64,000 nucleotides of DNA from Patescibacteria group bacterium. Lineage in GTDB: Bacteria; Patescibacteriota; Minisyncoccia; Phycocordibacterales; SIBU01. Position numbers and translations under genes: made by a program. The notes beneath the pieces are model-generated. The model did no database searches, had not been told where the DNA came from, and saw only the letters and a list, made by a program, of their open reading frames with translations. Location: the NCBI GenBank assembly GCA_038063715.1, contig JBBTUO010000007.1:1540-65539 (forward strand). Reading direction: 5' to 3'. How positions within the stretch are numbered: the stretch's first letter is position 1; each line of letters opens with the position of its first letter. Positions 6,010 to 42,815 of the stretch are shown here, in pieces.

Positions 6010-6543
6010 ATGAAACGAAATGATAATGAATTCAGCTTGTTCCTTGATAACGCGATATTCGCCAAGTATACCCGGAATAACACCTTTGCTAGAAAAATAG
6101 AGTGTGATCAGGCCAATGTGAGCCGCTGGCGGAGAGGTCTTCTTTTTCCACCAATTGTAAAACTCCCTATCATCGCAAAGGTGCTCAAAATTAGCCTCAA
6201 AGAACTCACACGCTTGTGGAAAACGCAAAAATATCCTGGATCAGCCACTGCTCATGAAAAAGTATCTGGATCATGTAAAGTGAAAGCTCGCTTGCTTCTT
6301 CACTTCTACGATGGGGAAAAGTTTCTGGGCCAAACGTTTCCAGAAGTCGAGGTGGCAAGTTGGGACGACCTGCAACAAGTGGTGATTGAAACCTACCCAG
6401 GCACAAAACGGAACCTTGATGGTATTCCGACCAAATTCTCGGGTGTTCCGATCTTGCTTCAACTACCCTCGTTGCGTGAAGGCTACGGCCCCAACACGAC
6501 CGTTCGAGTAATGCAGGTAATTCCAATGTCAAACCAAAACTGA
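6010..6543 (+). CDS. XRE-like helix-turn-helix domain protein
   Basis: HTH-like segment FAKYTRNNTFARKIECDQANVSRWRRG. The ATG at 6010 is the likely start; the ORF track begins at 5944. Confidence 0.5.
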   Translation: MKRNDNEFSLFLDNAIFAKYTRNNTFARKIECDQANVSRWRRGLLFPPIVKLPIIAKVLKISLKELTRLWKTQKYPGSATAHEKVSGSCKVKARLLLHFYDGEKFLGQTFPEVEVASWDDLQQVVIETYPGTKRNLDGIPTKFSGVPILLQLPSLREGYGPNTTVRVMQVIPMSNQN

Positions 6544-6551
6544 AAAACCGT

Positions 6552-6827
6552 ATGAAATTTATAAAAGAATACGCTTGCTTTGTTCTCATGGTGTTTCTAG
6601 CGGGTCGGTCATTGTATAAAGCGTTGTTACCTTCTGCTTTGATAAATCAGGAAGGTTTAGGTAGTCAGGCACTCTGGTTTGCAACCGCTCTCGCATGCTC
6701 CCTCACCGCGATATTCTGCGCCTTCACAAGTGCGCTATACAAAGTTATCGATGATGAAAAGAAAGAGCGCGCGCAAAATGCAGGAAACAATGCACCCTCG
6801 CGTCAGAAATCGAACATGCGCGAATAA
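6552..6827 (+). CDS. Hypothetical small membrane protein
   Basis: 91-aa ORF with two hydrophobic segments, immediately after the HTH gene. A terminator-like hairpin follows (~6843-6875). Confidence 0.3.
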   Translation: MKFIKEYACFVLMVFLAGRSLYKALLPSALINQEGLGSQALWFATALACSLTAIFCAFTSALYKVIDDEKKERAQNAGNNAPSRQKSNMRE

Positions 6828-6963
6828 GGTAAAAGTAAAACTAACAATAGGCGACCAGCAATGGCCGCCTTTTCTTTTATGCCGACAGAATGTACATCCC
6901 CCACTACACTCTATCTCCTGTTCCCTGTTCCTACCCCCTATCCACAGACCTCTATTTTCCTAC

Positions 6964-7001
6964 ATACATAAATCTTACGCTATAGCGTATAATTTATGTA
7001 T
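6964..7001. repeat. Imperfect ~38-bp palindrome ACATAAATCTTACGCTA|TAGCGTATAATTTATGT, overlapping the start codon of the downstream gene
   Basis: Core TACGCTATAGCGTATAATTT is identical to the downstream copy at 7601-7620. The ATG at 7000 lies in the right arm. Confidence 0.8.
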
Positions 7002-7566
7002 GGGAAAAATTGAAGAAGAATATCGCAAAAGACGCCGTAATGCCGAGATTCAGAAAGTTGTTCTTGGAACAATTGCGGTAGCGGGTGGTTTGAGCGTTTC
7101 CCTGCTGGCGCCGAATGCTCTGCAAGCATTAAAGATGCTTGGATTCAAAACAACTCGGCGAATTGAGTCAATAAAAGAAGCAAAAACGCGTCTGATCAGA
7201 GCTGGATTAATTTCTTACAACGGCAATGTTCTTTCACTGACGGCGAAAGGTGAAACAAAATTGTCCCTGCTGGAGCTAAATGAATATAAAATAAAAAAAC
7301 CGAAACGGTGGGACAAAAAATGGCGAGTTTTAATTTTTGATATCAGTGAGAGCAGAAAAACTTTGCGGGATAAGGTCAGAAGGACATTAATCGCCGTAGG
7401 TTTTATTCGACTTCAAGATAGCGTCTGGGTTTATCCCTATGACTGCGAAGATTTAATTGCTCTACTAAAGACTGATTTCAAAATCGGCAAGGAGTTGTTG
7501 TATATGATTGTCGACAGCATAGAAAACGACGAAATAATCAAAGAACAATTCGGCAGTATAAGTTAA
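7000..7566 (+). CDS. wHTH-like + Cas2/VapD-like domain protein (paralog 1), not in a CRISPR context
   Basis: 188 aa. The C-terminal half (KKWRVLIFDISESRKTLRDKVRRTLIAVGFIRLQDSVWVYPYDCEDLIALLK...LLYMIVD) resembles the Cas2 motif pattern (vLvvYDvs..krR.kv.k.L...G.RvQ.SVf.c.l). The N-terminal ~100 aa is basic and helix-rich (LLAPNAL...). The 295-aa ORF-track version, with its N-terminal extension through a terminator and palindrome, is rejected. Confidence 0.55.
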   Translation: MGKIEEEYRKRRRNAEIQKVVLGTIAVAGGLSVSLLAPNALQALKMLGFKTTRRIESIKEAKTRLIRAGLISYNGNVLSLTAKGETKLSLLELNEYKIKKPKRWDKKWRVLIFDISESRKTLRDKVRRTLIAVGFIRLQDSVWVYPYDCEDLIALLKTDFKIGKELLYMIVDSIENDEIIKEQFGSIS

Positions 7567-7588
7567 TATGAAAGCATCAAAAACCAAT

Positions 7589-7626
7589 ATACAGAAATTA
7601 TACGCTATAGCGTATAATTTCTGTAT
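7589..7626. repeat. Perfect 38-bp palindrome ATACAGAAATTATACGCTA|TAGCGTATAATTTCTGTAT
   Basis: Read directly. Third member of the TACGCTATAGCGTA family, 23 bp downstream of the wHTH-Cas2-like gene. Confidence 0.85.
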
Positions 7627-7687
7627 ATAATGTGTGGATGGATGCGGGCCTAAATTAAGCAGAACGCCTCCAATACAGTTTGAACTT

Positions 7688-13624: not shown

Positions 13625-14362
13625 TTATTTCGGCATAAATGGTTTTGCACTTCGCCATGCCATTTCAAAAATAGTTTTTAATGTTTCAGCGATAGTTACA
13701 TCTTCAATCCTAACCACAAAAAGATTCTGCTCCTGCAGTCGGAAAAATGCCACTACATTGCCGTAAATTACATTGTCATTAAAAATCGGGCCGGACGCTA
13801 AACGTGACATATACATCTCCCCCGCTGTTGTGGCCCATCGTTTAGAACTTTGGCGCGCTTCTGGCGTATCCGCAATAATTTCTCTAGTAAAAATTCGATT
13901 ATCGATCGTCGCTTGATTAATTTTACGAAAAATTTCTGGAAACCTTTTCTCTACCGAAGAAAGATCAGACCAAAAAATCAATTCTTTCGTATTTTTTATT
14001 TCCTCGTACATCTGGAGCAAACCTTCTTCTCCTTCAAAAACAGATACGCTCGGTTTACCCTGATTTTCTTGTTGCAACAATTCAAGTTCTCGAATTTGCT
14101 GCTTCCACTCAGACAAACCGTCTTCCAGTTTTTTCTGTAAAACCTTAGGATCAACGGCTCGGTAATACTCCCGCTTACCAATACATACCCGCTGGATAAA
14201 GCTTTTTTTAAGTAATTCATCCAGATACAGATAGACCGTTGGCCGCTTCAAACCAGCCTTTTGTGCGATTTTACCTACTGATGAAGTACCTAAAGCCAAG
14301 GCCGCCATATATACCTTGGCGGCTTTTTCATTTAAACCAAGGTTTTGCAGAACATAGATCAT
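13625..14362 (-). CDS. TrmB-family transcriptional regulator (paralog 2)
   Basis: N-terminal wHTH LGLNEKAAKVYMAALALGTSSVGKIAQKAGLKRPTVYLYLDELLKK. C-terminal half is similar to the other two paralogs. Confidence 0.7.
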   Translation of the reverse strand: MIYVLQNLGLNEKAAKVYMAALALGTSSVGKIAQKAGLKRPTVYLYLDELLKKSFIQRVCIGKREYYRAVDPKVLQKKLEDGLSEWKQQIRELELLQQENQGKPSVSVFEGEEGLLQMYEEIKNTKELIFWSDLSSVEKRFPEIFRKINQATIDNRIFTREIIADTPEARQSSKRWATTAGEMYMSRLASGPIFNDNVIYGNVVAFFRLQEQNLFVVRIEDVTIAETLKTIFEMAWRSAKPFMPK

Positions 14363-14533: not shown

Positions 14534-15670
14534 ATGAAAAAATACTTAATAATTGCTGTTGCTATCGTAATCGTCGGCTCCCTACTTTACCGTGCGGGTC
14601 ACAATGTCGACACAAAACCTATTAAAATGGGTGGCTTGTTTGACCTGACAGGGGTTACAGCCGATATCGGTGAAAGCTTAAAAAGAGGTTCCGAAATAGC
14701 GATCGAGAAAATCAATGCTAACGGTGGTATCAATGGTCGTATGATTGAAATAGTGTACGAAGATGCAACCGACGGAGCCGCGAAACCAGCAATTAATGGT
14801 GCGCAGAAGCTCATGAATATCGACAAAGTCGATATTATTCTCGATTATCCCTACTCAGGACTTTCGTCAATCGCAAAAACAGCGGAACAACTAAAAATCC
14901 CTGTTCTTGATGTCATTGATTCTTCCGATCAGATTGCTTCATTCGGAGACTGGGTATTCGGGGTCGGTATGTATGATGATGGTGTTGGAAAGTTTGTAGC
15001 GGAATTTGCCAAAAATGAGTTAGGGGCAAAAAATGTGGCAATGTTGGTCGGAAAAGATGAGTATCTCTATGCTGTGGCAGGTGGATTTGAAGAGGGCTTT
15101 CAATCGCTCGGTGGAAATATTACTCGCCGAGAAGAATTTTTGATCGGAGAGAATGATTTCCGGACACAACTGCTCAAATTGTTCGCCAAGGAGAAGCCAG
15201 AAGCGATTTTTGTCAGTCATTTTGGCGAAGGTGGAAAAATTATTAAACAGGCCAGCGAACTGGGTTTTTCAGGGGCATTTCTTGGTAGCGATACCTTCTC
15301 TCTTGCAGATGTTCCGAGAGTGGCCGGAAAGTTACTCGACCACCGAACGTACTTTGGTTTGTGGAGAAATTTTGATTCACAAACCAAGGAGCAGCTCGAA
15401 TTTGTCGAATTGTATAAACAGAAATACGGCGAAGAGCCGGGTGACTATCTCTTCTACAATGTACTAGGTTATGATGGAGTGATGGTCGCCGCCGAGGCAT
15501 TAAAAAAGACTGGTGGTGATGGAGGAGAAAAACTCAAAAACGCTCTGTACCAAACACAAAATCATCAGGGTTTAAGCGGGCCAATCTCAATTGATCAATC
15601 CGGCATCAATCGCGACACAAAAACAATGATGGTGATGTACAAAGACGGTAAAATTGTGCGGTATAAATAA
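14534..15670 (+). CDS. ABC transporter substrate-binding protein, branched-chain amino acid (LivJ/LivK-like, type 1 PBP)
   Basis: Signal/anchor peptide, then the family pattern GGLFDLTG...IAIEKINANGGINGRMIEIVYEDATDGAAKPAINGAQKLM, typical of Leu/Ile/Val-binding proteins. Confidence 0.75.
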   Translation: MKKYLIIAVAIVIVGSLLYRAGHNVDTKPIKMGGLFDLTGVTADIGESLKRGSEIAIEKINANGGINGRMIEIVYEDATDGAAKPAINGAQKLMNIDKVDIILDYPYSGLSSIAKTAEQLKIPVLDVIDSSDQIASFGDWVFGVGMYDDGVGKFVAEFAKNELGAKNVAMLVGKDEYLYAVAGGFEEGFQSLGGNITRREEFLIGENDFRTQLLKLFAKEKPEAIFVSHFGEGGKIIKQASELGFSGAFLGSDTFSLADVPRVAGKLLDHRTYFGLWRNFDSQTKEQLEFVELYKQKYGEEPGDYLFYNVLGYDGVMVAAEALKKTGGDGGEKLKNALYQTQNHQGLSGPISIDQSGINRDTKTMMVMYKDGKIVRYK

Positions 15671-22798: not shown

Positions 22799-24295
22799 AT
22801 GAAGAAAAGTGAGCATTTCGATCTCCCCGAAGAAGTAGTGACGATTGCAAAAACCCTTAAAACGGCTAATTTTCAGGCCTATTTGATCGGAGGCTGTGTT
22901 CGAGACATTCTACTCGATCGTAAACCGAAAGATTGGGATTTCACAACAAATGCTACACCGGAAGAAATAATAAAGCTGTTTCCAAAAACTTTTTATGAAA
23001 ACGCCTATGGAACTGTCGGGGTTGTGAATGAAACTGCTACCGATGAAACACTTAAGGTTGTGGAGATAACTCCATACCGCCTAGAAGCAACCTACAAAGA
23101 TTTTCGTCGCCCAAGCGAAGTAAAGTGGAGCGATAAATTGGAAGACGATCTACAGCGGCGAGATTTTACAATTAACGCTATCGCGCTTGAGATCGGTGAA
23201 AAAGTAGGGGATTCGTATAAGAGACAATTGACTGACCTATATAAAGGACAAGAGGATTTGGCTCGTAAAACTGTAAAGACCGTGGGCGACCCTCATGACC
23301 GTTTCAGCGAGGACGCCCTGAGAATGCTCAGGGCGATCCGAATCGCCACCGAACTTGGTTTCACCATTGATACTGAAACGGCTTCAGCTATAGCTAAATA
23401 CGCTCATTTACTTAAGGAAATAGCCCAGGAACGCATTCGGGATGAGTTTGTAAGGATAATAATGTCTGACAACCCTATGGTTGGCGTTATTTTGTGTCAA
23501 AAGCTCGGTATTTTGCAATATGTTGCACATGAAACAGAGAAGGCCATCGGAATAGAGCAAAACCAGGCCCACGCTTTTGATGTTTGGGAGCACCTCCTAC
23601 GATCGCTCCAACACGCTGCTGACAAGAAATGGCCCCTAGAAATAAGGCTTGCAGCCCTGTTTCATGATATTTCCAAGCCTGAAACACGAAGATCGTCTCC
23701 GAAAACAAAGTGGACATTCTACGGCCACGAAGTGGTTGGTTCACGTGTAACCAAGAAAATTCTTGAAAGACTCAAGTTCCCATCAAAAACCATTGAGACG
23801 GTCACGAAACTGGTTCGCTGGCACATGTTTTTCTCTGATACGGAGCAAATCACACCATCTGCCGTGAGACGCCTAATTGCCAAGGTGGGTAAGGACAATG
23901 TCTGGGATCTGATGAATCTACGCATCTGTGACCGAATAGGCACTGGCAGACCTAAAGAAAACCCTTACCGACTACGCAAATATAAGGCAATGATTGAAGA
24001 GGTAATGAGGGATCCGGTATCAGTGGGGATGCTTAAAATTGATGGAAACAAGTTAACTGATGTTACACATGTAACACCTGGACCTAAAATAGGGCAAATA
24101 TTGAACGCTTTGCTTGAGGAGGTGCTTGAAAATCCGAAACTCAATACCGAGGAATACCTAGAGAATAGGGCGGTGGAACTATCAAAGGTTTCAGATGAAA
24201 CACTAAAAACGCTCGCTGATAAGGGAAAAGAGGCCAAAAATGAGCTCGAGGAGGAGAGTATTAAGGAAATTAGAGACAAATATAAGGTGGAGTAG
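22799..24295 (+). CDS. cca: CCA-adding tRNA nucleotidyltransferase / poly(A) polymerase family with HD domain
   Basis: N-terminal Pol-beta-like motif GGCVRDILLDRKPKDWDFTT. HD motif LFHDISKP. Lies directly downstream of tRNA-Arg. Confidence 0.85.
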   Translation: MKKSEHFDLPEEVVTIAKTLKTANFQAYLIGGCVRDILLDRKPKDWDFTTNATPEEIIKLFPKTFYENAYGTVGVVNETATDETLKVVEITPYRLEATYKDFRRPSEVKWSDKLEDDLQRRDFTINAIALEIGEKVGDSYKRQLTDLYKGQEDLARKTVKTVGDPHDRFSEDALRMLRAIRIATELGFTIDTETASAIAKYAHLLKEIAQERIRDEFVRIIMSDNPMVGVILCQKLGILQYVAHETEKAIGIEQNQAHAFDVWEHLLRSLQHAADKKWPLEIRLAALFHDISKPETRRSSPKTKWTFYGHEVVGSRVTKKILERLKFPSKTIETVTKLVRWHMFFSDTEQITPSAVRRLIAKVGKDNVWDLMNLRICDRIGTGRPKENPYRLRKYKAMIEEVMRDPVSVGMLKIDGNKLTDVTHVTPGPKIGQILNALLEEVLENPKLNTEEYLENRAVELSKVSDETLKTLADKGKEAKNELEEESIKEIRDKYKVE

Positions 24296-24826: not shown

Positions 24827-25642
24827 CTATATAAGGCCATTGTCCGGTCGCGTTGAAATTTCTTTTTTAGTTTCTGAGTCTAATCTTTTCGCTTCCGCCC
24901 ACGCAAGCTCATAAATTTTTTTCATTGCGTCGGCAATTTCTTCGCTTTCAATAATAATCCCGAGCTTCTCTCGCCACGACGCGATCATCACTTTGTTATC
25001 GTAGATATTTATTTCTGGAGAAAAATAATATTTCTCCGATGACACAAGTGCGGTTTCTCGTTTCTCATCTTTGTCCTGTTTTTTTCGTTCTCGCCCAATA
25101 GTTGTTTCCGGAACAATTGCACGAATTGAGATATTTTTCTCCGCTCTCTGTTTGTAATACTTCGGGAAATAGTTGGGGAGTGCTTTATGCATGTCATCTA
25201 CATTTGCATAGGCCCGAATAGGCTCGGAGCTCGTCAAAGTATCTTCATATACGTATTCAAGACCATCTGTTCCCTCGTAAAATCGGATCTTTGGGCGATT
25301 TTCAAGAGAGTAGAGAACATTCAGCTCCGGCAATATTTTTTCTGACTGTTTAATAAAGCCTTCGGTCTGTGAAATTTGCCGTTTCAAATATTCTGTAACG
25401 GCCGTTGGTGGTTCAGGTGCATATTCCTGCTTTGGCTCCTTCCCAGACACGCTGGCCAACTTTTTACTAACTAAAGAGCCGAGAATATCGTAGCCGGTAG
25501 TGCGATTTATCCCTGCCTTGAGTGAAATCTTGGAAACCGTCGCCCTTCCAAGTTCGAGTAGGGCAATATAGACATCAACTTCTTTTTCGCTAAAACCAAA
25601 TGACTGAAGGTTGATTTTTAGTTGGGTGTATTTCTGTTCCAT
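24827..25642 (-). CDS. TrmB-family transcriptional regulator (paralog 3)
   Basis: N-terminal wHTH FGFSEKEVDVYIALLELGRATVSKISLKAGINRTTGYDILGSLVSKKL. The C-terminus (EEIADAMKKIYELAWAEAKRL) is shared with the remnant at 28093-28190. Confidence 0.7.
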   Translation of the reverse strand: MEQKYTQLKINLQSFGFSEKEVDVYIALLELGRATVSKISLKAGINRTTGYDILGSLVSKKLASVSGKEPKQEYAPEPPTAVTEYLKRQISQTEGFIKQSEKILPELNVLYSLENRPKIRFYEGTDGLEYVYEDTLTSSEPIRAYANVDDMHKALPNYFPKYYKQRAEKNISIRAIVPETTIGRERKKQDKDEKRETALVSSEKYYFSPEINIYDNKVMIASWREKLGIIIESEEIADAMKKIYELAWAEAKRLDSETKKEISTRPDNGLI

Positions 25643-25978
25643 GCGGTAAGCATATCAAAAATGCCTGATTGTGTCAATTATTTTCCACAAAAATACGCCT
25701 TATTGCCTAAATAGATTGATAAATATGGCTATTTCTATATTTAAAATGACGATTATATTTGACAATAAATAGAATATTGGGTATAGTTATGCAAGATAAG
25801 TTTCGGTAGCTCATTGAAATGCGCACTCAATAATTCATAGTGAAAGCACCGTTTCGATAGATGGAAGGTGGGTGTACTCTAGAGCCCACCACCCATCTAT
25901 CGAGTGAGGCAAAAAGCCGATTCTGCCAACGCAGGATTAGAAAAATCACAATTACGATGATTTTTCTTCATAGAATAG

Positions 25979-27232
25979 GTGCTCTCCGCTATGAAAAACA
26001 TCTTCCCGAACGTCCCCGCCTCCCTTCCAAGAAAAAGTGAATTGCCTCCGAACGGCACATGTCGCATGATCTGGAAGTGGAGCTACCCCGCCACAAGAAT
26101 GAGGGAAACGGTTGTAATCAAGGGAGAGGTTGTAAAAAAACTTCTTACCCTCGACCTCAACATTCCCGAATCCGGGTTTGCAACAAAAGTGAACAATGCA
26201 TCGCTCGCTGATGCAAAGAACATTTTTGTCGCAAACTACCCGTGCCCACACAAGTGTCCGGGCTGTTTCAACAACGCTGAGCTCCACAATCCAATCCTTA
26301 CCTTGGAAGAGATTTGGGGTATTGTGGACCAGGCGCTGGAACTCGGTCTCGAATCGGTAAAGTTTCTTGGGCCAGGCGAACTTCTCGCCAACCCTGAGAT
26401 CTTCACGGTTCTTGACGGGTTCCGCAGACGGAACATCGTGGTCGGCATCTTCACCAAGGGAGCAATAATGGGAAATGATGTGCTTGCATATCATTACCAT
26501 GGGATGAGTTCGGAAGAATTCACTCGCAAGCTCGTGTCATACCCGAATATGACATTCCTTGTTGGGGGCCGGTCATTCGACCCCCACTTCGAGAACCTCT
26601 TCATTCCGAGGAATGAAAGGCAGATCGATGTGAAGTTCGACTACCACGCTGCGCGCGGACTCGCTATTGAGCGACTTTGCAAATCTGGAATGAATGCTGA
26701 CCTTGAGAAACCTAGGCTGGCAATCATCTGTAGTCCAGTGACTTCCCAAAACATTGGTTGCGTGGGTGAGATATACAAATGGGGTGCCGAAAGGAACATC
26801 CCTGTGTATCTTCCACCAACGATGGTATCTGGGAAAGGCCATAAACTGGTGAAAAGTGCTTCGGACAAAAAATTCGAGGATGACTACATCAAATTGGCCG
26901 CCGATGTTTACACTTGGGCGATTGAGCGGGGAGTTATGACCCTCGAACAATTCGAACAAGAGGGGCCACATCCCTACATCGGAGTTGCACCCTGCAACCA
27001 GCTCACTCACGGCCTCTACGTTCACTACGACGGAGCGGTGTGGCGTTGCCCCGGTAACGACACACCCGACTTCGTGGTAAATGAGAACATCCGCAACACA
27101 CCTCTCGTTGAAATCTGGCGTGGTAGCAAAAACTACCGCATCAACAAATTCAACAACGGATGTGTGAAGGATGACATCTCGCTACCTCGCCGGTTTTATC
27201 GCGAGGTGAAGGACAAGGTTCAACGGCAGTAG
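25979..27232 (+). CDS. Radical SAM protein with Cys-rich C-terminal (SPASM/twitch-like) region
   Basis: Canonical CxxxCxxC (NYPCPHKCPGC). Six further Cys in the C-terminal half (CSPVTSQNIGC, APCNQ, WRCPGN, NGCVKDD). GC content is higher than flanking DNA. The start may be at 25991 (MKNIF). Confidence 0.7.
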   Translation: MLSAMKNIFPNVPASLPRKSELPPNGTCRMIWKWSYPATRMRETVVIKGEVVKKLLTLDLNIPESGFATKVNNASLADAKNIFVANYPCPHKCPGCFNNAELHNPILTLEEIWGIVDQALELGLESVKFLGPGELLANPEIFTVLDGFRRRNIVVGIFTKGAIMGNDVLAYHYHGMSSEEFTRKLVSYPNMTFLVGGRSFDPHFENLFIPRNERQIDVKFDYHAARGLAIERLCKSGMNADLEKPRLAIICSPVTSQNIGCVGEIYKWGAERNIPVYLPPTMVSGKGHKLVKSASDKKFEDDYIKLAADVYTWAIERGVMTLEQFEQEGPHPYIGVAPCNQLTHGLYVHYDGAVWRCPGNDTPDFVVNENIRNTPLVEIWRGSKNYRINKFNNGCVKDDISLPRRFYREVKDKVQRQ

Positions 27233-27270
27233 TTCTGCCACACGCTCTGGAGAATAGCGTCCAACTCCAA

Positions 27271-27300
27271 CCTCGCAAGCAATTGCGAGGTTTTTCTTTT
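27271..27300 (+). terminator. Rho-independent terminator after the radical SAM gene
   Basis: CCTCGCAA-gcaa-TTGCGAGG followed by TTTTTCTTTT. Confidence 0.7.
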
Positions 27301-27303
27301 GCC

Positions 27304-27388
27304 CAGTTTTGCCCGCGCTACTCCGTGGTCGCAACAACTGAGGCCGTCGCACATACCTCTTTATCCATGGTTCGACGCAACTTGATCA
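27304..27388 (+). repeat. ~85-bp double-hairpin repeat, copy A (diverged)
   Basis: TTTTGCCCGCGCTACTCCGTGGTCGCAACAACTGAGGCCGTCGCAC...CGACGCAACTTGA. Aligns with copies at 29215-29300, 29366-29410, 34950-35010 and 42725-42815 (reverse orientation). Confidence 0.7.
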
Positions 27389-27396
27389 GAACCATT

Positions 27397-27416
27397 TACT
27401 TTAGTTAACTAAAGTA
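27397..27416. repeat. Perfect palindrome TACTTTAGTTAACTAAAGTA (copy 2 of 3)
   Basis: Read directly. Confidence 0.8.
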
Positions 27417-27564
27417 TCCGTAAAGAAGTTTTATTCAACATTAAAAACTAAAAGTATTCTTGTTACGAACTTGATAATTTTTTTAAAAAATTAATTTTCA
27501 AAATCAAAATAGAAAAAGAAGAGCCCGTCGCTTGTGTGCGACGGGCTTTGTGAAAGTTCACGGA

Positions 27565-28017
27565 TCAACTTGCCGGAGGGGAGACCGGAACAACGAGCGG
27601 AACCGGGAGACAAGCGCCCAGGAAATTGTCACTGGGATTAAGCAGGCGGCGAAGAACGAAACCGTGAGAGATAATTGCGCCATCGGCACAGGGCACTGTG
27701 CCCGCCTGGCCATTGGGACACAAACTTTCGATGATATCCATGGCGCCACCCTCGTTCAGCGCCTTGGCCGAGGCTAACCAAACTACACCGTTGGTGGTGA
27801 CCACGACCAAAAGGCCAGCGTCTACGTTCCAGCAGCCGAGGGCGCTGGAAGAGATTTGGCCACCATCGGTAAGGCGAGCGCCAGCCATTTTCATGACGGG
27901 CAAGCCGGTGACGTTGACAAAACCGAGAGGTGCCAAAAGGTCCTCTCCTAACAAGGTGCTGTGTGTGCTCATAAGTGCGTGGGGGGGGGTAACAGGTTTA
28001 TCTGATTGTCCGAGCAA
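27565..28017 (-). CDS. Hypothetical Gly/Ala/Val-rich protein with several Cys, in a GC-rich insert (coding strand uncertain)
   Basis: 150-aa ORF, probably starting at the internal MSTHS. Convergent with the radical SAM gene. A competing 113-aa ORF on the plus strand (27698..28039). Composition is unlike the surrounding genome. Confidence 0.3.
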   Translation of the reverse strand: MLGQSDKPVTPPHALMSTHSTLLGEDLLAPLGFVNVTGLPVMKMAGARLTDGGQISSSALGCWNVDAGLLVVVTTNGVVWLASAKALNEGGAMDIIESLCPNGQAGTVPCADGAIISHGFVLRRLLNPSDNFLGACLPVPLVVPVSPPAS

Positions 28018-28092
28018 TTCGAACTATTTTCGAGTCTAACATATTTTAAACTCACTGTCAAGTAAAACTATGGAATAGGGCTTTCCTAGATA

Positions 28093-28190
28093 GAATTTAT
28101 CTTGAGCCCTTGTCCAACCTTTTCGCCTCCGTCCACGCCAATTCGTAAATTTTTTTCATCGCGTCAGCGATCCACTAGCTCTCAATTTGG
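28093..28190 (-). pseudogene. 3' remnant of a TrmB-family regulator gene
   Basis: The minus strand encodes ...IADAMKKIYELAWTEAKRLDKGSR*, preceded by an in-frame stop. It is nearly identical at the DNA level to the 3' end of the gene at 24827-25642 (TTTTCGCCTCCGTCCACGCCAATTCGTAAATTTTTTTCATCGCGTC). Confidence 0.55.
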
Positions 28191-28257: not shown

Positions 28258-29130
28258 ATGAATACAAAAAACTATTTCGTAGCTCCGACAATTGCATTGC
28301 TTATATCCCTCTCTTTCTGGTTCACCGCCAATACCGCCAACGCCACCGTCGGTGGACCAACTTTCGTCCACTCTTTTTCCTACAATCCTGCCGATGAATC
28401 TGTGTACTACATTATGAACTCGCAGAACGGACGGGGTTGCCCACCCGAATTACTCAAACTCTCTTTGGCTTCAAATACTTCTCAAGTAGTGTACTCGTGC
28501 GACGAGGGCGAGAGTTTGATCCAAAACACCAACTACGATTTTGCACCCGTGAACGCCAAAATCAGCGACATCACGGAGGGATACAAACGTCTCATCCCAA
28601 TACATTTAAAAAATAATAATATTTCTGTCAGCGTTGATTTCCATGGGCTCGAGAATATTTCTCCGGAGGTCAGCGAGATAAAGAATGCGAAGTTTACCGT
28701 AAATATCTCTCAAGACAACAAAAAGCTCGCACCCATCCCCATCGTAGGCTGTAACAACGACCAACCCTTCACCCTTGCCGGCTATGCCATACCTGGATTT
28801 GAGAAAAAAATAATTATCCTCCTATCTACAAAAGGTGATTGCTGGGAAGGTGGCTATATTCGCGAAAGTCTCCATGTTGTCGGAGGAATAAGCGACTTGG
28901 ATAAAAATTACACCACCAACTACTACAAAGAAGCGTCCGCGCTGGTACCGAACGAAGGCACCTTAGTGGTCTCAGCCTCGGATGAATCTTCACCAAATCC
29001 TATTGCAACGAACACTCATGATACAGAGACGCCTCGTGAAAACGCCTCCGGTAACAGTATTTTATTTACTCTTGCGATTATTGTCTCTTTGATAATTGGC
29101 GGTGTGATCGGAAAGCGATACCTAAAATAA
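28258..29130 (+). CDS. Hypothetical secreted protein with N-terminal signal peptide and C-terminal TM anchor
   Basis: 290 aa. Hydrophobic N-terminus (VAPTIALLISLSFWFTANTANA). C-terminal ILFTLAIIVSLIIGGVIGKRYLK. Asn/Ser-rich. Confidence 0.5.
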   Translation: MNTKNYFVAPTIALLISLSFWFTANTANATVGGPTFVHSFSYNPADESVYYIMNSQNGRGCPPELLKLSLASNTSQVVYSCDEGESLIQNTNYDFAPVNAKISDITEGYKRLIPIHLKNNNISVSVDFHGLENISPEVSEIKNAKFTVNISQDNKKLAPIPIVGCNNDQPFTLAGYAIPGFEKKIIILLSTKGDCWEGGYIRESLHVVGGISDLDKNYTTNYYKEASALVPNEGTLVVSASDESSPNPIATNTHDTETPRENASGNSILFTLAIIVSLIIGGVIGKRYLK

Positions 29131-29152: not shown

Positions 29153-29182
29153 CCAGCTACTTTAGTTAACTAAAGTAGCTGG
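29153..29182. repeat. Perfect 30-bp palindrome CCAGCTACTTTAGTTAACTAAAGTAGCTGG (copy 3 of 3)
   Basis: Read directly. Begins 23 bp after the stop of the upstream gene. Confidence 0.85.
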
Positions 29183-29214: not shown

Positions 29215-29300
29215 TCCCAATTTTGCCCACGGTACTCCGTGGTTGCAACAATTGCGGACGTCGCACCCCTCTGTTTCCGCAGCGCGACGCAAACTTGAGA
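29215..29300 (+). repeat. ~85-bp double-hairpin repeat, copy B (best-preserved)
   Basis: CCCAATTTTGCCCACGGTACTCCGTGGTTGCAACAATTGCGGACGTCGCACCCCTCTGTTTCCGCAGCGCGACGCAAACTTGAGAG. Hairpin 1 is CCACGG-tact-CCGTGG. Hairpin 2 is GACGTCGC...GCGCGACG. Confidence 0.8.
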
Positions 29301-29365: not shown

Positions 29366-29410
29366 GTGCAATTTTGCCCACGGTACCCCGTGGTTGCCAC
29401 AATTGATCCC
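29366..29410 (+). repeat. Partial copy (hairpin-1 half) of the ~85-bp repeat, copy B'
   Basis: GCAATTTTGCCCACGGTACCCCGTGGTTGCCACAATTGATCCC. Confidence 0.7.
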
Positions 29411-29530: not shown

Positions 29531-30325
29531 CTACTTAATGTCTATTAGGACGGGGCAATGATCCGAACCCATGACTTCGGGGAGGATTTCAGCGGATTTG
29601 AGGCGGGGAAGGAGAGCGGGAGAAATCAGGACGTAGTCGATACGCCAGCCAACGTTGCGAGCGCGGGCGTTGGCAAAATGCGACCACCAGGTGTAGTGGC
29701 CATTGCCTTTTTTGAATTGACGAAAGGTGTCGATAAATCCGGCGTCAATAAATGCCTGAAAACCGGCCCGTTCTTCTTTGGTAAACCCCTTCAAACCTTC
29801 GTTTTCCTTTGGCCGAGCCAAATCATCCGGCGTGTGAGCGACATTTAAGTCGCCGCAGAAAATGACAGGCTTTTTCTTTTCCAAAAATTTACAATAGGCC
29901 AAAAATACCGGGTCCCATTGCTTGTGGCGAAGGGGGATTCGGCTTAAATCATCTTTCGCGTTCGGAGTATAAACCGTAACAACATAAAAATCTTTATACT
30001 CGGCGGCGATCACTCGGCCTTCGGTCAGTGGATCACCGTATTTGTCCGCGCCAAGTTTACATTTTTTGATAATCGCCTCAGGAAAACCATTTATAACTGA
30101 AAGCGGTTTTTCTTTGGTAAAAATCGCCGTTCCGGAATAACCTTTTTTCTCGGCGGAGTTCCAGTATTCAGTATATTCGGCCAAATCCACCTCCGACTGG
30201 TGCTCCTGCGCCTTTGTTTCCTGCAAACACAAAATATCCGGCTGATATTTTTCGATAAACGGCACAAAAAGCCCTTTTTTGTGCACCGCGCGAATGCCGT
30301 TGACGTTCCATGAGATGAGTTTCAT
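29531..30325 (-). CDS. xth: Exodeoxyribonuclease III (AP endonuclease, Xth family)
   Basis: MKLISWNVNGIRA...LCLQETK...DLNVAHT...WWSHFANARARNVGWRIDYVL...GSDHCPV are the EEP-family catalytic motifs. Confidence 0.9.
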   Translation of the reverse strand: MKLISWNVNGIRAVHKKGLFVPFIEKYQPDILCLQETKAQEHQSEVDLAEYTEYWNSAEKKGYSGTAIFTKEKPLSVINGFPEAIIKKCKLGADKYGDPLTEGRVIAAEYKDFYVVTVYTPNAKDDLSRIPLRHKQWDPVFLAYCKFLEKKKPVIFCGDLNVAHTPDDLARPKENEGLKGFTKEERAGFQAFIDAGFIDTFRQFKKGNGHYTWWSHFANARARNVGWRIDYVLISPALLPRLKSAEILPEVMGSDHCPVLIDIK

Positions 30326-42724: not shown

Positions 42725-42815
42725 CAAAATGGGTTTACGTCGCGCTGCGGCAACAGAGGAGGCGCGACGTCCTCAATTGTTGCAACCGCGGAGTACCGTG
42801 GGCAAAATTGGGAAC
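42725..42815 (-). repeat. ~85-bp double-hairpin repeat, copy D (reverse orientation)
   Basis: The reverse complement is GTTCCCAATTTTGCCCACGGTACTCCGCGGTTGCAACAATTGAGGACGTCGCGCCTCCTCTGTTGCCGCAGCGCGACGTAAACCC, about 90% identical to copy B. Confidence 0.8.

Follow-up and report, generated by a model that had tools for sequence, protein, structure and literature searches.

The DNA analysed here is a stretch of 64,000 nucleotides from a Patescibacteria group bacterium (contig JBBTUO010000007.1 of assembly GCA_038063715.1), referred to below as the window. The locus under study contains a gene for a radical S-adenosylmethionine (SAM) enzyme of 413 aa at 25991-27232 on the + strand. The open reading frame (ORF) can begin at 25979 or 25991, and the ATG at 25991 is preferred because the homolog alignment places the start there. 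A spacer of 348 nt separates this gene from a divergent gene for a TrmB-family regulator of 271 aa (24827-25642, - strand). The end of the radical SAM transcript is marked by an intrinsic-terminator-like hairpin with a U-run at 27269-27292 (+), found by a terminator scan. The segment 27233-27294, which covers this terminator region, is 93.5% identical in L028 (related loci are designated by L numbers), the closest relative, in which the enzyme is 93% identical. The terminator is followed by an AT-rich spacer with repeats and then by ORF135 (27565-27972, -), a GC-rich gene convergent to the radical SAM gene that encodes a 135-aa protein of an uncharacterised family and lies outside the module. 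We consider it rather probable that the locus is a stand-alone module of a radical SAM enzyme and a TrmB-type regulator with a candidate cis-regulatory RNA, and not a biosynthetic cluster.

The enzyme has the cysteine motif CX3CX2C of the radical SAM superfamily, a partial TIM-barrel core fold in its structure model and a profile match to the superfamily. The motif, already recognized as CxxxCxxC in an initial annotation of this DNA, reads CPHKCPGC at residues 85-92 (C85, C89 and C92) and is invariant in an alignment of 19 homologs with 43-91% identity, as are a GGE-like motif (FLGPGELL in the window) and the combination of CX12GX4C (C335, G348 and C353) with C391. The C-terminal cysteines had been counted correctly, with six after residue 200 (C230, C246, C257, C335, C353 and C391), but only C335, C353 and C391 are invariant in the homologs. 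Pfam matches of the window protein to SPASM (23 bits) and Radical_SAM (21 bits) are both below the gathering thresholds; across the family, 19 of 19 members match SPASM and 18 of 19 match Radical_SAM. Membership in a housekeeping radical SAM family, which the initial annotation had named, together with the lack of a conserved small partner gene, as the outcome that would refute its proposal, was not found in the search with the hidden Markov models (HMMs) of NCBIfam. No curated family cut-off was reached, all matches scoring ≤25 bits against cut-offs of 126-650 and covering the cluster-binding segment alone. The best scores were 24.9 bits (cut-off 380) and 24.3 bits (cut-off 381), with MoaA at 14.9 (231) and Cfr at 13 (530), and the equivalogs for RlmN/Cfr, QueE, MoaA, NrdG, PqqE and NirJ/AhbD all stayed below their curated cut-offs. 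The sole match in a sequence search of the PDB was Cfr, with E = 0.0016.

A SPASM domain is defined by the seven-cysteine motif CX9-15GX4C - gap - CX2CX5CX3C - gap - C, which holds two auxiliary clusters, and a twitch domain is a truncated SPASM domain with one auxiliary cluster (PMC6231123). The CX2CX5CX3C block was not found in the window protein, and the full SPASM domain proposed initially gives way to a twitch-like domain: because CX12GX4C and C391 are present and CX2CX5CX3C is absent, the enzyme is assigned as twitch-like with three Cys ligands. The predicted arrangement, with CX9-15GX4C on a β-hairpin and further ligand(s), corresponds to a single auxiliary cluster. Like the twitch enzymes SkfB, BtrN, MoaA, BlsE and SpeY, the protein has a partial TIM-barrel core with CX3CX2C and a C-terminal β-hairpin domain that starts with CX9-15GX4C and offers one auxiliary-cluster site. 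The structural-neighbour scores are 19.8 for SkfB, 19.2 for ChlB, 19.1 for anSME, 18.3 for SuiB, 17.7 for BlsE, 17.3 for MoaA, and 16.0 for both viperin and PqqE. Unlike the known twitch enzymes, to which it has ≤18% sequence identity with every curated family cut-off missed, the protein has a conserved N-terminal arm of 50 residues and two helices inserted between strand 1 and the cluster loop, and no MoaC, RiPP recognition element (RRE; RiPP, ribosomally made and post-translationally modified peptide) or pathway partner is encoded nearby. It also differs from the SPASM maturases anSME, PqqE, CteB, SuiB and MftC, in that a second auxiliary cluster is not expected and there is neither an RRE domain nor an adjacent precursor or target gene. 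As judged from its sequence, the enzyme adds a new, uncharacterised member to the twitch radical SAM group.

The family is small. A search of 5.8 billion proteins returned 207 clusters at E ≤ 1e-3, nearly all of them either without a name or called only "SPASM domain-containing" or "MoaA/NifB/PqqE/SkfB family". On the bacterial side they belong to Taylorbacteria, Nomurabacteria and Paceibacteria/Patescibacteria (50-93% identity), on the archaeal side to Woesearchaeota, Pacearchaeota and Micrarchaeota (41-45% identity). The family is mostly restricted to bacteria of the candidate phyla radiation (CPR) and to DPANN archaea. With two invariant peptide patterns, 25 loci were found in 185,579 species genomes (one genome per species), and a metagenome scan added 59 further loci. 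From these counts the family is rare and patchy and not a housekeeping one. It is nevertheless strongly conserved and common to CPR and DPANN. In some archaeal and remote loci the radical SAM gene is directly followed by a second member of its family, as noted at L020 (9321-10559; also L061 and L062) and at L075 (1687-3042). Literature searches returned nothing relevant to this enzyme family or its leader.

All ORFs within ±5 kb of the radical SAM gene were clustered for 89 loci, with duplicates of the same population kept. A TrmB-like gene of ~260 aa lies divergent and within 800 nt upstream in 39 of the 41 CPR-type loci for which ≥1.1 kb of sequence upstream is available. At the archaeal-type loci a tandem AsnC/Lrp protein replaces the TrmB regulator, 15 of 17 having a divergent protein of ~327 aa with two AsnC-type helix-turn-helix (HTH) stretches (PF13404, 87 bits, two stretches). 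Assignment of this archaeal partner as a siroheme decarboxylase (NirDL/AhbAB) was rejected, NirdL-like_HTH scoring 16 bits against a cut-off of 27 compared with the 87 bits of the AsnC-type HTH. Besides the regulator, no conserved ORF was found within ±5 kb. An enzyme family almost confined to CPR and DPANN thus has its own regulator in both domains. A weaker association than that with the regulator is seen with Liv-type periplasmic binding proteins (Peripla_BP_6). Their gene adjoins the radical SAM gene at L054 and L099 (CPR) and at L081, L082 and L079 (remote homologs), is part of the same operon at the Bacteroidetes locus L027, and lies 1-3.5 kb away at L006, L007, L009 and L011. This association is a hint at a small molecule.

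In the window, the regulator matches PF01978 with 57.4 bits (cut-off 25.6) over residues 12-79, its N-terminal winged helix. It resembles the TrmB-family regulators, both the sugar-responsive TrmB/TrmBL of archaea and the TrmB-like proteins of bacteria, in this domain, in being divergent from its target gene and in having palindromic motifs in the spacer. Unlike in archaeal TrmB, the C-terminal half (residues 80-271) has no Pfam match at E ≤ 0.1, including to the archaeal TrmB sugar-binding domain. A promoter scan found promoter-like sites for both genes in the spacer: TTGACA-17-TATGCT at 25677..25649 (-) for the TrmB gene, and TTGACA-17-TATAGT at 25746-25787 (+) for the radical SAM gene, the latter with 11 of 12 consensus positions and preceded by ATGACGA. 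The arrangement TGACGA-N6-TTGACA-17-TAnAnT is kept across CPR loci. Radical SAM transcription would start at ~25794-25797, and AGUCAAG is found near the corresponding position in many loci. The -35 box of the TrmB promoter is overlapped by the palindrome TTGTG-N12-CACAA at 25669-25690, a candidate operator, which recurs as TTGTGTCAAT..TTCCACAA in most CPR intergenic regions. Between the divergent promoters, at 25714-25728, stands GATTGATAAATATGG (consensus TATTGATAAATAWGG), another candidate regulator-binding site, with motifs of this type in the window, L003, L005, L006, L007, L008, L011, L014, L016 and others. Downstream of the promoter, the leader motif CUCAUUGAAA (25810-25819, +; consensus KWUCWUUGAAA from the upstream regions of ~40 loci) is present in long and short leaders of CPR orthologs alike. 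It is noted that the spacer of L003, whose enzyme is 91% identical to that of the window, measures 725 nt versus 348 nt, with an extra GC-rich ORF of ~83 codons (~7430-7680) between the conserved promoter and the leader motif.

The 5' leader of the radical SAM gene is highly structured. Its 216 nt fold at -77.8 kcal/mol compared with -47.8 ± 4.2 for shuffled sequences (z = -7.1), and none of 200 shuffles is as stable. The long imperfect hairpin described in the initial annotation is real, with arms of 19 nt at 25854-25872 and 25885-25903 that are 89% complementary, and is now seen to be the first stem of a larger element of ~170 nt, P0-P4, spanning 25836-25993 (+). P1 occupies 25853-25904, with the apical palindrome CUCUAGAG at 25877-25884, and is followed by P2 (25908-25918), P3 (25919-25938), P4 (25939-25967) and the conserved single strand UCAUAGAAUAGGUG (25968-25981), all on the + strand. 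P0 (+) closes the element by pairing 25836-25850 with 25978-25993, which covers the Shine-Dalgarno (SD)-like AGGUG and the AUG. The earlier remark that no U-run follows the hairpin holds as well: P1 is followed by GAGUGAGGCAAAAAGCC, and the terminator scan detected none in 25790-25990. With no U-run and no terminator-like site, an attenuator or terminator mechanism is unlikely. Of the two functions suggested for the hairpin initially, the riboswitch-like one fared better, the hairpin being part of a conserved multi-stem RNA with covariation.

Fourteen leaders of enzymes 57-93% identical to that of the window each fold independently into the same order of stems, P1-P4, namely a long P1, a 3-bp P2 (GRC...GYC), a P3 hairpin and a P4 hairpin, mostly closed by P0. 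In P0, CAYC located 2-5 nt before P1 pairs with GRUG ~10 nt before the AUG, often extended by CAUAG with CUAUG, which includes the start codon. The pairing covaries, CACC/GGUG in some leaders corresponding to CAUC/GAUG in others. The P1 apex keeps a self-complementary octamer (CUCUAGAG, CUCAUGAG or CCAUAUGG), and two segments are conserved but unpaired, UGAG following P1 and UCAYRAA-AUAGRUG following P4. From a plain MAFFT alignment, RNAalifold obtains P1, P2 and P4, and 10 pairs are compensated. A covariance model, R1, searched over 845 kb of related loci plus the window with rough E-values, matches these leaders and nothing else, every match stopping at the start codon of the radical SAM gene, with 121-152 bits on the + strand; on the minus strand the palindromic P1 alone scores, with 25-43 bits. 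Three held-out loci of close homologs scored 141, 111 and 106 bits, and each folds alone to the same architecture. When pairs were counted in 17 distinct leaders with an alignment fitted to the model, 95.0% of pair cells form standard pairs and 18 of 35 pairs have changes on both sides (P3 7/7, P4 5/6, P2 2/3 and P1 4/19). No shuffle of 500 did as well, and slid controls reached ≤7 such pairs with 38-52% paired. Compensatory base changes and a fixed position 5' of one gene family are what is expected of a structured leader, and the element is proposed from these comparisons as a candidate new cis-regulatory RNA motif.

The Rfam scan called for initially, made with Rfam 15, returned no family match at any threshold tried; there were only chance hairpin matches far below gathering scores, and the known families, including T-box and SAM riboswitches, were rejected on this result. 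An upstream ORF that starts in P1 (25861-26040) was considered and rejected, as its frame and length are not conserved: loop-length differences are not multiples of three, and L033 has no ATG. A phage or mobile origin of P1 was likewise dropped, the three viral-contig matches to a 19-mer giving no match to the model and being consistent with chance.

The element resembles SD-sequestering riboswitches and other structured 5' leaders, such as multi-stem junction riboswitches, in being ~170 nt long, lying in cis directly 5' of the start codon and having no terminator. The likeness extends to a junction of several helices, in which the stems covary and the joining strands are conserved, and to a closing helix that takes in both the SD-like element and the AUG. 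It differs from known riboswitches in having no Rfam match and in being confined to one subclade of one gene family, and an alternative (ON/OFF) fold and a role for a ligand are putative. P0 would pair the SD-like GRUG and the AUG with the upstream CAYC/CAUAG and sequester the ribosome-binding site and start codon. In 7 of 13 leaders, positions -14 to +3 are computed to be less accessible than when the 5' flank is shuffled, which makes masking of the ribosome-binding region by P0 plausible though not universal.

Several points weigh against reading the leader and the spacer as the control region of a ligand-responsive module. Extra occlusion is not seen in 6 of the 13 leaders, P0 itself is not universal, and GRUG is a weak SD sequence at 9-12 nt from the AUG. 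The alignment used for the pair counts was fitted to the model, the 17 leaders are related to one another, and several loci are duplicates of one population. Many orthologs, L035 among them, do not have this leader. Only a short leader is found in L008-L011, L016, L090 and others, while L007, L029 and L044 have a different hairpin and, after it, one that sequesters the SD. Because of these orthologs the leader RNA is not essential to the module, and the motif is a lineage-specific addition to it. The spacer motifs, including TTGTG-N12-CACAA, are candidate regulator-binding sites, and binding of TrmB to them is putative.

It is a possibility of appreciable weight, though one we do not favour, that the leader is not a metabolite sensor at all. 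It could be a protein-binding site, used for example by the enzyme itself in autoregulation or by a ribosomal or RNA-binding protein, an RNA thermometer or a stabilising 5' structure, or P1 could be a DNA operator. P1 is indeed a long near-perfect inverted repeat with a self-complementary apex, and such functions would agree with the dispensability of the leader in many orthologs, with the inconsistent occlusion by P0 and with the failure to identify an alternative, ligand-dependent fold. Opposed to an operator are the G-U pairs and the strand asymmetry of the R1 scores (106-152 versus 25-43 bits), which favour RNA over DNA, and the position of P1, ~60-110 nt downstream of the predicted promoter. 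The strong covariation of P2-P4 (14 of 16 pairs) and the unpaired joiners UGAG and UCAYRAA-AUAGRUG, which look like a junction pocket, also count against this alternative. A more specific proposal, which we put forward tentatively and regard as somewhat doubtful, is that P0-P4 constitutes a new class of riboswitch that binds the substrate, the product or a SAM-derived by-product of an uncharacterised single-enzyme radical SAM reaction shared between CPR and DPANN through inter-domain transfer. If true, the identity of the ligand would reveal both the chemistry of the enzyme and a metabolite important to the ultra-small, host-dependent prokaryotes of CPR and DPANN.

For the module as a whole, comparison of the loci has shown, at the level of sequence, a divergent regulator conserved in two domains of life, a conserved spacer architecture and a covarying leader over the translation start. 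The module is probably ligand-controlled. We envisage control at two levels, by the dedicated regulator acting on the intergenic region and, in the subclade of the window, by the leader RNA. The regulator, TrmB-type here and AsnC/Lrp-type in archaea, would sense a small molecule and control the divergent promoters, and the leader would gate translation initiation in response to a ligand, a protein or another signal. Radical SAM enzymes whose substrates are not known form a large blind spot, and the genes of CPR and DPANN genomes are mostly unassigned. In this context an orphan structured leader on a CPR/DPANN-specific enzyme family is the most valuable lead from the locus. The orphan cis-regulatory RNA offers an experimental handle, because a ligand screen with a 170-nt RNA needs no cultured organism.

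The enzyme itself is expected to use 5'-deoxyadenosyl radical chemistry at a SAM-cleaving [4Fe-4S] site. Its twitch domain would hold one auxiliary cluster with a free iron site, as with the three Cys ligands of MoaA, in which free iron on the auxiliary cluster binds the substrate (PMC6231123). The three-Cys auxiliary cluster may thus bind or oxidise a substrate that needs no dedicated neighbouring gene, the free iron site positioning a substrate other than a dedicated neighbouring peptide. The substrate is most probably a small molecule, and the links to the Liv-type transporter make a nutrient-derived one possible. Against this, the three conserved Cys would equally fit a fourth, non-Cys ligand or a substrate Cys as in CteB (PMC6231123). 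It should also be mentioned that the small-molecule view is built on the absence of peptide evidence and a loose genomic association.

An enzyme directed at a macromolecule, either an anSME-like protein maturase or one for modification or repair of RNA or DNA, would act on a common cellular component, and for that reason no linked partner gene would be expected. We consider it unlikely. The gene is rare, with 25 loci in 185,579 species genomes and 207 clusters in 5.8 billion proteins, unlike housekeeping modification genes, and every curated family cut-off is missed widely. A ligand-type regulator (TrmB or AsnC/Lrp) and a sensor-like leader are better suited to inducible metabolism than to constitutive modification.

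Decidedly unlikely, finally, is the peptide-modification locus proposed in the initial annotation, a RiPP locus with a sacti-, ranthi- or streptide-type maturase whose substrate is the convergent ORF or a short precursor encoded nearby or elsewhere. The top structural neighbours do include the RiPP maturases SkfB, ChlB, SuiB, CteB and TigE, a peptide Cys can be bound by an auxiliary cluster that has a free site, as happens in CteB (PMC6231123), and a substrate could be encoded elsewhere in the genome; but there is no RRE or PqqD domain, the 89 loci show no conserved small ORF beside the gene, genes for a protease, a transporter or immunity are absent, and ORF135 does not behave as a partner.

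The first of these points depends on the N-terminus. Residues 1-84 match nothing in Pfam at E ≤ 1, and PqqD, the model for the PqqD-like winged helix of an RRE, has no match in any of the 19 members. In remote homologs the strand KLLTLD stands 8 residues before the Cys motif. In the structure model of the window protein KLLTLD forms a strand (residues 53-56), the first of the barrel, and two inserted helices follow (61-82). The N-terminal extension is therefore just ~50 residues long, and it is predicted to consist of a conserved extended segment or coil and a β-hairpin. On the profile searches and the model, the N-terminus is not an RRE. As for short precursors, the genome-neighbourhood analysis that had been suggested found no conservation of any ORF of 18-90 aa in the 700 nt downstream of the radical SAM gene, the divergent regulator being the sole conserved neighbour.

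The convergent, GC-rich, Cys-containing ORF noted earlier does exist (57.8% GC). ORF135 could also start at an upstream TTG at 28017, giving 135-150 aa, and has a promoter-like site at 28061..28033 (-) and a terminator at 27547..27522 (-). Its transcription unit is not unusually structured as RNA (z = -1.84). A k-mer search returned only ORF135 itself. When 1.84 billion representatives were searched exhaustively with HMMER, 110 relatives appeared at E ≤ 1e-3, nine of them at ≤1e-10, of similar length and with 30-44% identity over the full length. ORF135 is on this ground a member of a real gene family, and its status as an orphan or non-gene is ruled out. The family shares the motifs GFVHVTGL, LGxWxxNNGxxVxVTxxGEVWL and LCPNGxGAFVPCSNGE and two conserved Cys. 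The conserved Cys could speak for a peptide substrate, but the 135-aa protein is predicted to be a confidently folded globular one. No relative of ORF135 is encoded in any other related radical SAM locus; a convergent ORF of 135 aa in L100 was considered as a relative and proved unrelated. Four relatives on long contigs lie with thymidylate/folate genes, with pyrimidine genes, between rpoC and ftsK, and with unknown small genes, and no radical SAM gene is near any of the four. The proposed role of ORF135 as substrate or partner is thus not borne out. Annotation or mining of the locus as a RiPP cluster with ORF135 as precursor should be avoided, which removes a false lead.

The segment ~27300-28100, which contains ORF135, is absent from L028. 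In its place L028 carries a second TrmB gene, a paralog that is intact and runs towards the radical SAM gene in convergent orientation (6364..7140, -). A relic of the 3' end of such a paralog, 75 nt long, remains in the window at 28112-28186 (-); it is 77% identical to 24878-24952 and matches the 3' ends of the TrmB genes in L028, L004, L029, L035 and others. The relic marks where, on the far side, the lineage-specific insertion or rearrangement that brought ORF135 has its edge. Considering the absent relatives, the promoter and terminator of its own and the segment missing from L028, we conclude that ORF135 is unrelated to the module and came by local rearrangement.

The claim that the block as a whole has a higher GC content stands in part. 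The radical SAM gene (50.5%) and ORF135 (57.8%) are above the window (44.3%), but the elevation is not continuous: as the TrmB gene has 41.7% and the spacer 27300-27520 is AT-rich, there are two GC-rich genes and not a single GC-rich block. Horizontal acquisition, also suggested initially, is left ambiguous. The radical SAM gene exceeds its flanks by 5-12 GC points in many CPR loci, and archaeal copies equal theirs; the GC of the linked TrmB gene is not raised. The excess is compatible with, but not proof of, spread of the radical SAM gene among CPR genomes.

Among the neighbouring genes, the CCA-adding enzyme lies at 22799-24295 (+) and exonuclease III at 29531-30325 (-). In L088 the TrmB/radical SAM pair is placed differently among the same neighbours as in the window (RNHCP, UPF0102, the CCA-adding enzyme and exonuclease III), a comparison which suggests that the two-gene module moves as a cassette. 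One gene of the window was also recovered on a groundwater contig from Hainich. A defence system was considered and rejected, the PADLOC result being a 14-bit partial match to pVip and generic HTH matches only.

A second divergent pair in the window consists of a TrmB paralog (13625-14362, -), 28% identical to the regulator of the radical SAM module, and a periplasmic binding protein of the Liv type (14534-15670, +). Their spacer has the palindrome ATGTCAAT-AAA-ATTGACAT, which holds TTGACA on both strands. The pair suggests that a set of TrmB-type regulators governs nutrient uptake as well as the radical SAM enzyme. Bacteroidetes-type homologs of the enzyme (33-34% identical) were observed inside Liv-type ABC operons with LivH/M/G/F and the binding protein, at L027 (2396-13269) and L082 (102-7074). 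The former runs on into a 1410-aa protein with a GHKL-ATPase-like motif and adjoins AbiEi/AbiEii-like genes, and the latter adds an AlaX-like tRNA_SAD protein.

Downstream of the TrmB relic, an ORF of 290 aa (28258-29130, +) encodes a protein that is hydrophobic at the N-terminus and has a hydrophobic anchor at the C-terminus. It belongs to no Pfam family, none of the fetched loci has a relative of it, and it is probably a lineage-specific surface protein. A genome-specific repeat, TTTTGCCCRCGSTACTCCGTGGTYGCAACAA, occurs at 27307-27337, 29221-29251 and 29372-29402 (+) and at 42777-42807 (-), four copies versus none expected by chance, and is absent from 96 other fetched loci. It reaches 54 nt in three copies and contains the hairpin CCACGG-TACT-CCGTGG, which raises the question of whether it is like a repetitive extragenic palindrome or a miniature inverted-repeat transposable element. 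A perfect 20-nt palindrome, TACTTTAGTTAACTAAAGTA, has two copies (27397-27416 and 29158-29177), each adjoining a copy of TTTTGCCCRCGSTACTCCGTGGTYGCAACAA. These pairs of TTTTGCCCRCGSTACTCCGTGGTYGCAACAA and TACTTTAGTTAACTAAAGTA bracket the segment with ORF135, the TrmB relic and the 290-aa ORF, and may be the boundaries of an insertion or rearrangement.

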